Assembly (NCBI GenBank): GCA_003285105.1
Contig: CP030158.1
Location: 2,864,664 to 2,896,663 of the forward strand
DNA length: 32,000 nt
DNA from: Roseithermus sacchariphilus
GTDB taxonomy: Bacteria; Bacteroidota; Rhodothermia; Rhodothermales; MEBIC09517
Direction: 5' to 3'
Both the position numbers and the translations under genes were made by a program. Of the stretch, positions 24,689 to 32,000 are shown piece by piece. The notes under the pieces were generated by a model, which searched no databases, was not told the origin of the DNA, and worked only from the letters and a program-made list of their open reading frames with translations. Numbering within the stretch: position 1 is the stretch's first letter; each line of letters opens with the position of its first letter.

Positions 24689-26368
<1,680 letters not shown>

Positions 26369-26410
26369 CCCCATCGAGGGCAGGCGGTGCGCCCGCCCCT
26401 CCGACGCATC

Positions 26411-29434
<3,024 letters not shown>

Positions 29435-29490
29435 CGCCCCTGGGCCGCGTGGGCGCACGGATCCACCGAAACGTTCACGGAGGTTTTCCC

Positions 29491-30489
29491 ATGAGTGACA
29501 CATCCCCATCCCCGGCCCGCCCGAACGGCAGCGAGCCGCGCTCGCTGGAGGAACACCTCCACGAGCCGTCCACCGAAGCCGCCCTGCATCGCATCCTGGA
29601 CCGCATGGACCGCATCGAGCAGGCCCTGGCCCGGCTCACCGAAGCCGTCGACCAGGCCCCGGCCGTTGCCGCCACGATGGTGGATGTGGTCGATGACGTG
29701 GCCCGGGCGGCCGATGCCCGGGGCGTGGACCTGGACGAGCGCCTGCACGGCGTGCTGACGCTCGCCGAACGACTGACCGCCCCGAAGACCGTCGAGGTGC
29801 TGACAGGGCTGCTGGATCGGCTCGACCAGGTCGAGCAGTTGACGGCGTTGCTGGATCAGGCGCCGGGCTTCGCGGCCATGACGGTGGACATCGCCGACGA
29901 GGCGGCCCGCCGCGCCGCCGAGCGAGGCATCGACCTGGACGAGCGGCTGCACGGGGTGCTCGGCCTCGTCGAAAAGCTCTCCGCTCCCGAGACGGTGCGG
30001 GTGCTGTCTGCCCTGCTGGCGCGCGTCGGCGATCTCGAGCAGCTCCTGGCCCTGGCCGACCAGGCCCCCGGCTTCGTCGCCATGATGGTGGACGTGGCCG
30101 ACGAGTGGGCGGCGCGGGCGGCCGAGCGGGGCACGGACGTCGAGACGATGCTGCATGCGACGGCGGCGGCGGCGCGCCGGCTCACCGAGCTGGTCGGGTC
30201 CGCCGAGTTCCAGGCGCTGCTGGATTCCGGCGTGCTGGATCCGCGTGCGCTGGGTGTCGTGGGGACGGCCGGGCAGGCCCTGGTCCGCTGCCAGGAGGAA
30301 TGCCTCGAACGCCCCGAGCCGCCGAAGACCGGCCTGTTCGGCCTGCTGCGGGCCGCGCGCGAGCCCGAGATGCAACGCACCCTGGCGTTCCTGGTCCACT
30401 TCGGACGGTTCTTCGGCGAGGCCATGGCCGCGCATCACCGCCGCCACACCCTGCCACCCGCCGGCCCCACGAACGGCGCCGCCTCGTGA
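29491..30489 (+). CDS. DUF1641 domain protein with three N-terminal tandem helical repeats
   Basis: ACGGAGG lies 7 nt upstream of ATG 29491. The C-terminal block GLFGLLRAAREPEMQRTLAFLVHFGRFFG matches my memory of the DUF1641 signature. The N-terminal 3x repeat is listed separately. Confidence 0.75.
   Translation: MSDTSPSPARPNGSEPRSLEEHLHEPSTEAALHRILDRMDRIEQALARLTEAVDQAPAVAATMVDVVDDVARAADARGVDLDERLHGVLTLAERLTAPKTVEVLTGLLDRLDQVEQLTALLDQAPGFAAMTVDIADEAARRAAERGIDLDERLHGVLGLVEKLSAPETVRVLSALLARVGDLEQLLALADQAPGFVAMMVDVADEWAARAAERGTDVETMLHATAAAARRLTELVGSAEFQALLDSGVLDPRALGVVGTAGQALVRCQEECLERPEPPKTGLFGLLRAAREPEMQRTLAFLVHFGRFFGEAMAAHHRRHTLPPAGPTNGAAS
29596..30219 (+). repeat. three in-frame tandem repeats of about 204 nt (68-72 aa) inside the DUF1641 gene
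   Basis: Unit 1 is 29596-29811, unit 2 is 29812-30015 and unit 3 is 30016-30219. The DQAP anchors at 29650, 29854 and 30058 are exactly 204 nt apart. The shared pattern is L(D/A)R.D..EQL.AL.DQAPGF.AM.VD.ADE.ARRAAERG.DLDERLHGVL.L.EKL.AP.TV.VL..L. Confidence 0.85.
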
Positions 30490-30529
30490 TCTCATCAGCG
30501 CACCTGAACCCTCGAACGGAGGAGCTACC

Positions 30530-31750
30530 ATGCAAGTCCCAGCTTTCAAAGACCACTACCAGGTCCTCGTCGTCGGCGGGGGAGCCGCCGGCCTGACCGT
30601 CGCCGCCCAGCTGCTCAACCGCGAAGACCCGCCGGAGGTCGCCATCATCGAGCCCTCGGACAAACACTACTACCAGCCCATCTGGACGCTCGTCGGCGGT
30701 GGGGTGGTGCCGCGCGAGGAGTCCGAGCGCGACGAAGCCGACTACATCCCGCCGGGCGCCGTCTGGATCCAGGACGCCGTCACCGCCTTCGACCCGGAGG
30801 CCGGCACGGTGTCCACGCGCGACGGCCGGACGGTCGGCTACGACGTCCTCGTCGTCGCCCCCGGCATCCAGATCGACTGGAACAAGCTGCCCGGGCTGGC
30901 CGAGAACCTCGGCAAGAACGGGGTGTGCAGCAATTACTCGTACGAGCACGTCGAGTACACCTGGAAGACGATGCAGCGGCTCAAGCCGGGCGGGCGGGCG
31001 CTCTTCACGCAGCCGGCCACGCCGATCAAGTGCGGAGGGGCCCCACAGAAGATCATGTACCTCACCGCCGATCACCTGCGCCGTCGCGGCATCCTGAACG
31101 AGGTGGACGTGCAGTTCTTCACGCCCGGCGGCGTCGTCTTCGGCGTGCCCGAGTTCGCCCGGACGCTGGAGAAGGTGATCGAACGCTACGGCATCACCTT
31201 CAACCTGAAGCACGAGCTGATCGAGATCCGCGGTGACGCCCGCGAGGCCGTCTTCCGCGTCACCGACGCCGAGGGCGGAACCGAGGAGAAGGTGCTCTCC
31301 TTCGACATGCTCCACGTGACGCCGCCGCAGAGCGCGCCGGATTTCATCAAGCAGAGCAAGCTGGCCAACGAGGCGGGCTGGGTGGACGTGGACAAGTACA
31401 CGCTCCAGCACACCCGGTATCCCAACGTGTTTGCCCTGGGCGATGCGGCGGGCACCCCGAACGCGAAGACCGGCGCGGCCGTCCGGAAGCAGGCGCCGGT
31501 GGTCGTTCACAACCTCCTGGCCTACCTGCGGGAGCAGGCCATTCCCGATCCGAAGACCTACAACGGCTACGCCTCGTGCCCGCTGGTGACGGGCTACGGC
31601 AAGCTGGTCCTGGCCGAGTTCGACTACGACAACCGCCCCGATCCGTCCTTCCCGTTCGACACGACGCAGGAGCGCTACAGCATGTATGCGCTGAAGCGGT
31701 ACGCCCTGCCGCAGATGTACTGGCACGGCATGCTCCGCGGCCGCGCCTGA
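30530..31750 (+). CDS. sqr: sulfide:quinone oxidoreductase, type II (mitochondrial SQOR-like)
   Basis: FAD motif VLVVGGGAAGLTVA. Redox cysteines lie in PIKCGGAPQKIMYL (codon 31031-31033) and YASCPLVTGYGKLVLAEFDY (codon 31577-31579). The C-terminal FPFDTTQERYSMYALKRYALPQMYWHGMLRG closely parallels the human SQOR tail as I remember it. GGAGGAG lies upstream of ATG 30530. No signal peptide. Confidence 0.88.
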   Translation: MQVPAFKDHYQVLVVGGGAAGLTVAAQLLNREDPPEVAIIEPSDKHYYQPIWTLVGGGVVPREESERDEADYIPPGAVWIQDAVTAFDPEAGTVSTRDGRTVGYDVLVVAPGIQIDWNKLPGLAENLGKNGVCSNYSYEHVEYTWKTMQRLKPGGRALFTQPATPIKCGGAPQKIMYLTADHLRRRGILNEVDVQFFTPGGVVFGVPEFARTLEKVIERYGITFNLKHELIEIRGDAREAVFRVTDAEGGTEEKVLSFDMLHVTPPQSAPDFIKQSKLANEAGWVDVDKYTLQHTRYPNVFALGDAAGTPNAKTGAAVRKQAPVVVHNLLAYLREQAIPDPKTYNGYASCPLVTGYGKLVLAEFDYDNRPDPSFPFDTTQERYSMYALKRYALPQMYWHGMLRGRA

Positions 31751-31785
31751 GGCGCCGCCCCGGGGCGTTGGCCCTGCGTTCCGCC

Positions 31786-32000
31786 ATGCCTGCTCTGGAG
31801 GAAGCCATCGCCCGCAGCCGGGCCTACGACCAGCTGGCCGCGGCGTACCGGCACGGCCTGACCGACGCGCTGCGTCCGGTGCTGGCCGCCGTGCCCGACC
31901 TGGCCGGGGTGCTGCCCGAGCCGTTCGATGCGGACGAGGCGGCCGCCGCGCACTACCGGCTCTTCGGCCGCGACGTCCTCCCCTACGCCAGCGTCTTCCT
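31786..32000 (+). CDS. TorD/NarJ/DmsD-family redox-enzyme maturation chaperone, 3' end cut by window edge
   Basis: Not in the ORF track because there is no stop within the window. ATG 31786 lies 35 nt after the sqr stop. My translation is MPALEEAIARSRAYDQLAAAYRHGLTDALRPVLAAVPDLAGVLPEPFDADEAAAAHYRLFGRDVLPYASVF. High GC3, and HYRLFG...PYASVF resembles the family's E(Y)xxLF...PYxSvy signature. Confidence 0.6.
   Translation, partial: MPALEEAIARSRAYDQLAAAYRHGLTDALRPVLAAVPDLAGVLPEPFDADEAAAAHYRLFGRDVLPYASVF

Follow-up and report, generated by a model that had tools for sequence, protein, structure and literature searches.

A three-unit helical membrane plugin protein as the probable scaffold of sulfide:quinone oxidoreductase in Roseithermus sacchariphilus

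Background

What does a DUF1641 protein of 332 residues do beside the gene of a sulfide:quinone oxidoreductase (SQR)? The question is raised by a gene at 29491..30489 on the plus strand of a 32,000-nt stretch of Roseithermus sacchariphilus CP030158.1, here called the window, to which all coordinates refer unless another locus is named. A first-pass annotation of the window had described the product as three consecutive 68-aa helical modules in front of a conserved DUF1641 block and, from the position of the gene between a molybdoenzyme gene and the SQR gene, had suggested a role in tethering or assembly. Its statement that DUF1641 proteins are usually small holds, the characterised ones having 140-188 aa. 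DUF1641 (PF07849) is listed as HMP, for helical membrane plugin, in the newer Pfam release, and this name is used below.

HMP/DUF1641 tubes were recognised between 2023 and 2026 as structures that give soluble or monotopic oxidoreductases access to the quinone of the membrane. In HucM, residues 20-79 form a cage holding the lobes of the Huc hydrogenase, and the tetrameric amphipathic tube, made of residues 80-189, extends to the membrane and admits menaquinone (PMC10017518). ForE scaffolds the formate dehydrogenase ForC likewise (PMC8808070), and YjlC/Ncp forms 4:4 complexes with the NDH-2 enzyme Ndh, which stack head to tail into filaments filled with lipid and quinone (PMC13524794; PMC13433803). 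All three solved HMP types (HucM, ForE and YjlC/Ncp) are quinone conduits (PMC13433803; PMC10017518). Most HMP genes, however, adjoin SQR genes, and SQR is the probable ancestral partner of the family (PMC13433803). HMP-SQR is the commonest pairing and, according to the literature, one without experimental study. As reported here, the Roseithermus protein is probably the HMP scaffold of SQR: by analogy with the solved cases, a tetrameric, membrane-plugged tube whose acidic body would hold SQR and supply it with quinone, and whose body has apparently been lengthened by duplication of a unit.

Results

Three tandem 68-aa units followed by one C-terminal DUF1641 domain were confirmed at 29491-30489 (+). 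The DQAP motifs lie at aa 54, 122 and 190, corresponding to nt 29650, 29854 and 30058, with a spacing of exactly 204 nt, and a repeat scan of the window returned an 87-nt direct-repeat family with 204/204-nt spacing and 69-70% identity. The self-score of the protein at a lag of 68 residues (BLOSUM62) was 306, compared to -18 ± 11 when the best lag of each of 1000 shuffles was taken, and DNA identity at a lag of 204 nt was 55.8%, compared to 42.1 ± 1.1% in codon shuffles. A unit hidden Markov model (HMM), for which 564 units from proteins outside the query lineage were used, located three units at aa 28-105, 106-175 and 172-242 (E 3e-29, 9e-32 and 1e-25), while shuffled queries reached 4.8 bits at most. 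The units are matched by no Pfam family, and Pfam sees only DUF1641 at aa 274-308. With respect to the DNA itself, the first-pass annotation had noted that units 2 and 3 have long stretches of nucleotides in common; a DNA-level signal is present, but "long" overstates it, as no exact match extends beyond 9 nt. Compared over their whole length, the units are 52-60% identical as DNA and 43-51% identical at third codon positions, close to saturation, and Tandem Repeats Finder returned no 204-nt array. The DNA repeat signal here is mainly a by-product of protein conservation and, given the 9-nt longest run, the nearly saturated third positions and the lack of an array by Tandem Repeats Finder, the triplication in the Roseithermus genome is old.

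The gene is a 332-aa open reading frame composed of a leader, three units and a head, all on the plus strand. Its start, ATG at 29491, agrees with the N-termini of orthologues and is preceded at a distance of 7 nt by a Shine-Dalgarno-like GGAGG (29479..29483, +); an ACGGAGG motif, found as a repeat family in the window, is common to the HMP and SQR starts. The N-terminal leader (aa 1-35, 29491..29595) carries a partial unit motif, L..P.T..AL..LLDR, in the family alignment A1. The boundaries of the units were taken from the unit HMM. Unit 1 (aa 36-107, 29596..29811) carries, in the unit alignment A3, 4 inserted residues that units 2 and 3 lack, unit 2 (aa 108-175, 29812..30015) is the one absent from two-unit homologues, and unit 3 (aa 176-243, 30016..30219) has a divergent C-terminal half that runs into the head. 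The C-terminal head (aa 244-332, 30220..30486) contains the Pfam DUF1641 match at nt 30310-30414 and a GLFGLLR motif at 30331-30351 (+). Only two cysteines occur in the whole protein, both in the head region and none in the repeat units. The genome, that of a close relative of Rhodothermaceae bacterium RA, carries a single DUF1641 gene, and the family is rare in the phylum sample (10/401 genomes).

The type II SQR gene (406 aa, 30530..31750, +) begins 40 nt 3′ of the HMP gene. The alignment of its product to human SQOR (6mp5) spans aa 8-404 (E 8e-122) and includes the two catalytic cysteine contexts, CGGAPQK and SCPLVTGY. Compared were 18 contexts, comprising the window, a 98%-identical relative (L016), eleven further genomes from the phylum, of which nine belong to Rhodothermales and two to another family (f49), a metagenome-assembled genome of Polyangiales, and several unplaced metagenome contigs. 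A type II SQR gene lies directly downstream of the HMP homologue in 18/18 contexts, whereas molybdoenzyme genes are found upstream in 6/18 (the window, L016, G021, G110, G030 and L070). Genes for persulfide dioxygenase-rhodanese, SulP and TauE proteins are frequent, variable neighbours. SQR is the likely partner because of this invariant adjacency, while the molybdoenzyme adjoins in only a third of the contexts and has an NrfD anchor of its own. The conserved functional pair is therefore HMP and SQR, and the position between molybdoenzyme and SQR genes is particular to some lineages.

Membership of the product in the HMP family is well supported by sequence comparison. Pfam PF07849 matches at 41.8 bits against a cut-off of 21 (E 1e-10), a search of the PDB with profile A1 returned HucM (7uus_Q, 1e-12), YjlC (9snk_B, 3e-5), 9pxk_E (6e-5) and ForE1 (8rqz, 1e-4), and the single sequence alone matched HucM at E 1e-4. 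When the head is aligned to YjlC (9snk_B), G281-L-F283-G-L-L-R287 and R290-E-P292 of the query fall on G106-L-F108-G-L-L-R112 and K115-D-P117, placing F283 on Phe108 and R290 on Lys115, two residues that in Ncp insert into the membrane or the next tetramer/filament interface (PMC13524794). Across the family alignment A1, G281, G284, R290 and P292 are at least 90% conserved. Each unit carries a net charge of -6 and the head one of +1, matching the polarity of acidic body and basic head described for Ncp, where the basic C-terminal helix of Ndh docks on the acidic body (PMC13524794). The AlphaFold2 (AF2) secondary structure is all-helical, and the hydrophobic moments of the helices (0.31-0.46, compared to about 0.2 ± 0.1 in shuffles) are those of amphipathic helices.

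Each unit is predicted in the AF2 model as three helices, a long one after an L-T-x-P-x-T turn, a second one from (D)QAP, and a short third one after a G-x-D turn. Conservation was counted over 573 units: P18 is kept in 83-95%, D26 in 97-98%, D29 in 97-100% and G39 in 94-97% of units, and R45 and P59 are each kept in 92%, in all but the last unit. In weak alignments with the family profile, the leader and the start of unit 1 correspond to HucM 23-74, as well as to 7utd_Q, a HucM fragment of 60 residues deposited with the Huc body, and the boundary of units 1 and 2 corresponds to YjlC 17-62; in the single-sequence search, HucM 17-186 aligns with query residues 152-310, that is, with one unit plus the head. 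Weak as they are, these alignments together suggest that a canonical HMP corresponds to the head with a single unit, and the repeated part to the enzyme-binding region. The first-pass proposal that the modules are degenerate copies of the region normally N-terminal to the DUF1641 core gains some weak support in this way, from the alignments of the leader and unit 1 to HucM and YjlC.

The number of units was then counted with the unit model in 209 proteins, namely the query, the matches of two database searches and a few cluster members. Two units were found in 105 proteins and three in 64, followed by four in 25, five in 5, six in 5 and seven in 2; two proteins had one unit and a single protein had none. 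Three units, which had been described as an expansion, are thus the second commonest state in this SQR-linked subfamily and not an outlier. Median protein lengths rise by approximately one unit per step (about 68 aa, or ~58 aa in some lineages), and two- and three-unit proteins are separated in alignment A1 by a clean gap of one unit, 68 query residues in columns 117-185. Where orthologues of equal length devoid of a repeat signal had been named at first pass as counter-evidence, the lengths were found to differ by whole units and a repeat signal was present in all. On a rough FastTree of 185 representatives, computed from the non-repeated parts, ~62 changes of unit number were counted compared to 80 ± 3 for shuffled labels, an estimate on the upper side given the crude tree. 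Adjacent units are 91-100% identical within P0065, P0003, P0070 and P0064, and such near-identical neighbours point to recent amplification in several lineages. Expansion of the HMP body by tandem duplication is therefore recurrent and ongoing.

The nearest lineage with the same molybdoenzyme operon is L048 (G021:C1:1117000-1135000, with HMP on the minus strand), which has two units and an SQR 81% identical to that of the window. The first 99 nt of these two units are 88% identical, and 85% identical at third positions, which marks a recent duplication or gene conversion, unlike the old triplication in the Roseithermus window. The G021 head lacks the LLDSGVLDP segment. A sub-lineage (P0003, P0070, P0078 and others) has units of 58 residues, shortened by 10 residues in the first helix, and reaches up to 6-7 of them; one of its members, at L070 3348-4718, stands in the order molybdoenzyme, HMP, SQR, persulfide dioxygenase, rhodanese and TorD. 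Divergent HMPs with a head match of E about 1e-4 were found upstream of type II SQR genes in G042 (L055 7134-8247) and at L040 (G088). The G042 protein has about four 60-residue units (lag-60 score 218, compared to -61 ± 15 when shuffled), and the divergent G042 and G088 proteins are an independent case of the same architecture. An apparent one-unit HMP in G110 (L052, G110:C97) was rejected, as masked bases (X) lie where a unit would be. Such repeats may be collapsed or broken in draft assemblies.

SQR sequences were compared for a signature of the HMP association, using 34 sequences (14 HMP-linked and 20 without HMP or with a divergent one only) over 406 columns. Loss of the C-terminal membrane helix in HMP-linked SQRs was ruled out, since 30/30 Rhodothermia SQRs end at an MLRG(R/K)A-type terminus. 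The strongest difference in interfacial hydrophobicity of all 406 columns lies in the last helix at position 395, which is Q/N/D/R/E in 14/14 HMP-linked SQRs and W/F/Y/M/I/V/A in 17/20 others. Nearby, position 387 is Ala in linked SQRs compared to Leu/Ile/Met in the others, and position 390 is mostly non-basic compared to Lys/Arg. This signature of the C-terminal helix resembles what has been published for NDH-2, as the HMP-associated enzymes differ mainly in their C-terminal helices (PMC13433803). It is a lead, with too few independent transitions for statistics.

In the window, the HMP and SQR genes belong to a run of five co-oriented genes (24689-32000; 13955-19975 in L016), in the order iron-sulfur (FeS)-NrfD fusion, molybdenum-bis(pyranopterin guanine dinucleotide) (Mo-bisPGD) enzyme, HMP, type II SQR and TorD-like chaperone. 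The first gene (24689..26368, +) encodes a four-cluster FeS-NrfD fusion (Pfam Fer4_11 and NrfD), the membrane/quinone subunit of the molybdoenzyme, and is conserved in L016, G021 and G030. The second (26504..29434, +) encodes the Mo-bisPGD catalytic subunit, 976 aa by the orthologue start (Pfam Molybdop_Fe4S4, Molybdopterin and Molydop_binding). Its best NCBIfam match is PhsA, far below the cut-off, with TtrB also sub-threshold, and no twin-arginine motif was seen by eye. Downstream of SQR, the start of a TorD/NarJ-type chaperone gene (31786..32000, +) runs past the edge of the window; the L016 orthologue has 325 aa and matches PF02613 Nitrate_red_del. In the 98%-identical L016, the five genes are followed by two SulP transporter genes and a persulfide dioxygenase-rhodanese fusion gene. 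Judged by gene content, the set resembles a route from sulfide to sulfate in the cytoplasm, with a possible role for the molybdoenzyme as a sulfite dehydrogenase similar to SoeABC.

A candidate sigma-70-like promoter, TAGACA-18-TATATT (29202..29231, +; 10/12, by consensus match only), lies 260 nt before the HMP start, still inside the molybdoenzyme gene at its 3′ end. From it the HMP-SQR pair could be transcribed separately, which would fit with the independent occurrence of the pair elsewhere. In a published table, the 335-aa DUF1641 protein BXT84_01950 of Sulfobacillus thermotolerans is listed as 2.2-fold up on sulfide concentrate (PMC7409299). Judged by its length, this suggests a multi-unit HMP expressed under sulfide exposure.

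Discussion

In the mechanism that we infer from HucM, ForE and YjlC/Ncp, four HMP chains would be interwoven, forming a tube that is hydrophobic on the inside, the basic head with its GLFGLLR..R.P motif would plug into the cytoplasmic face of the membrane, and the acidic helical body would physically hold the SQR flavoenzyme and bring quinone to it. The number of units would set the length of the tube, the volume of the lumen and possibly the enzyme load genetically.

Among the closest known systems is YjlC/Ncp-Ndh of Bacillus subtilis (9snk, 9pxk; PMC13433803, PMC13524794), which shares the GLFGLLR..K/R.P head, the acidic helical body with a basic head, and a flavoprotein partner of the NDH-2/SQR superfamily encoded by the adjacent gene. 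Ncp extends quinone access away from the membrane, and by analogy the Roseithermus protein may do the same. The two differ in how length is gained: Ncp has 140 aa with at most one unit-like segment and lengthens by non-covalent head-to-tail stacking of 4:4 complexes, whereas the query, as read from its sequence, repeats the body module within one polypeptide that has a single head. They differ also in the partner, an SQOR-like SQR here compared to a clade C1 NDH-2 whose gene is in strict synteny with ncp, and in the organism, as the Ndh-Ncp association is reported to be specific to Bacillales/Bacillota and the organism here belongs to Rhodothermales. The locus is therefore not of the Ndh-Ncp type. 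HucM of the Mycobacterium smegmatis Huc hydrogenase (7uus, 7utd; PMC10017518) is the best solved relative by profile. Its N-terminal enzyme-binding helices (20-79), tetrameric amphipathic tube and basic membrane-binding terminus have likely counterparts in the query by analogy, but it has 188 aa, a single N-terminal module, a [NiFe] hydrogenase as its partner, and a stalk without recognisable tandem repeats.

ForE of ForCE (8rqz; PMC8808070) is a DUF1641/HMP scaffold encoded beside a Mo-bisPGD enzyme, and a molybdoenzyme gene lies upstream here too. ForC, however, has no membrane subunit and depends on ForE, while the molybdoenzyme here is encoded with an FeS-NrfD fusion and is itself missing at most HMP-SQR loci; the locus differs from the ForCE type in both respects. 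ForE itself, at 17-21 kDa, has no unit repeats recognisable by the unit profile. The SQR-associated HMP genes noted in PMC13433803 share the HMP-SQR adjacency, which was proposed there as the ancestral HMP association; that account is a genomic remark only, with an HMP phylogeny drawn from the conserved C-terminal domain alone. The HMP family, its mode of action and its pairing with SQR genes are thus already published (PMC13433803, PMC13524794). Tandem body units or a variable number of them were not described in the DUF1641 literature searched, which included the two 2026 structure papers and did not cover Broc et al. 2025. The latter study (Nat Struct Mol Biol) is said to have defined nine HMP groups.

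Several results weigh against an SQR scaffold of the kind proposed. The AF2 model of the full-length monomer, from a 37-sequence alignment, was poor (mean pLDDT 59, pTM 0.33), and Foldseek with this model against the PDB gave no match at E < 3; a poor monomer would be expected of an obligate intertwined oligomer. Units align to HucM and to YjlC only weakly, at per-stretch E values of 0.03 and 0.8. A profile of the unit alone (A3) matched no solved HMP in the PDB but only designed helical repeats at marginal E, so that any connection of the unit with canonical HMP bodies depends on the weaker full-length profile alignments. On the side of the enzyme, all 34 SQRs end at the same position with or without HMP, the C-terminal helix not being lost, and the SQR tree has just three changes of HMP state, with a single independent pair when well-supported branches are considered. 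Close homologues of SQR (59-73% identity) function in genomes that lack HMP, and since no PF07849 match was found anywhere in five HMP-less genomes with close SQRs, HMP is an optional addition that is not generally required for SQR. Finally, no report of an HMP-SQR complex was found in the literature searched, and the association here is one of gene order.

Part of the role suggested at first pass can be kept. The HMP family does scaffold enzymes to membrane quinone, and a tether or scaffold is in line with this. No support was found for an assembly role, and a bridge from molybdoenzyme to SQR does not agree with their presence in 6/18 and 18/18 contexts, respectively. That the three-unit protein tethers or assembles molybdoenzyme and SQR in one complex, with the units as separate docking sites, appears quite improbable. 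It would explain why the HMP gene stands between the two in a tightly spaced, co-oriented cluster and why the order molybdoenzyme, HMP, SQR recurs in G021, G110, G030, L016 and the unrelated metagenome contig L070, and ForE shows that an HMP can scaffold a Mo-bisPGD enzyme (PMC8808070). However, the HMP-SQR pair stands without a molybdoenzyme in 12/18 contexts, and unit number does not track its presence, at 2, 3 and 6 units with it (G110 being masked by Ns) compared to 2, 3, 4 and 6 without. Furthermore, the molybdoenzyme, unlike ForC, has an NrfD-type quinone/membrane subunit and also a dedicated TorD-like chaperone. A role apart from quinone, with only the DUF1641 head in common with known HMPs, such as that of a regulator, a sulfur-carrier platform for persulfide dioxygenase/rhodanese or a membrane-associated structural protein, is the least credible to us. 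Although the pair often has persulfide dioxygenase-rhodanese, SulP and TauE genes in its vicinity, and SQR-linked HMPs are known from their genes alone, SQR is the sole invariant neighbour while the other sulfur genes shift position or are absent, the units hold no cysteine, with the only two of the protein in the head region, and the three solved HMP types all act in quinone conduction.

The alternative that bears on the repeat itself accepts the protein as a scaffold of SQR but takes the number of units to be functionally neutral, the units being a tolerant helical spacer that grows and shrinks by unequal recombination while the first or last unit and the head do the work. Unit number is indeed very labile, with three units here and two in G021 despite an SQR that is 81% identical, near-identical adjacent units speak for frequent recent duplication, and there is one SQR gene per locus at any unit number. 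Against a neutral spacer, all units, including the internal ones, keep D26 and D29 (at least 97%) and, when not terminal, R45 (92%), which would be unexpected of a free spacer; changes always involve whole units of 68 or 58 aa; and the old units in the window have been kept in frame despite saturated third codon positions. We therefore regard neutrality of the unit number as unlikely, and favour an SQR scaffold whose length would be set by the number of units.

In such an SQR scaffold, each unit may be a complete docking and quinone-pocket tier, so that a tetramer with n units would carry up to 4n SQR per membrane plug. This is offered tentatively and by analogy, as something that could be so but more probably is not. 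The docking tier fits with the conservation of residues in every unit and with the homology to the HucM cage, but a layer of three helices may not be tall enough to accommodate a tier of SQR. If true, the protein would correspond to the Ndh-Ncp filaments, but as a covalent structure of defined length in place of an open-ended one, and sulfide-oxidising capacity per membrane site would be tuned by gain and loss of units, from 1 to 7.

Conclusions

For annotation, long "DUF1641 proteins" can be read as multi-unit HMPs whose unit lies outside every Pfam model. The natural series from one to seven units offers a test of tube length against enzyme loading, quinone or lipid capacity and distance from the membrane, and the SQR-linked subfamily, to which the Roseithermus protein belongs, allows a first look at a complex of SQR with HMP.

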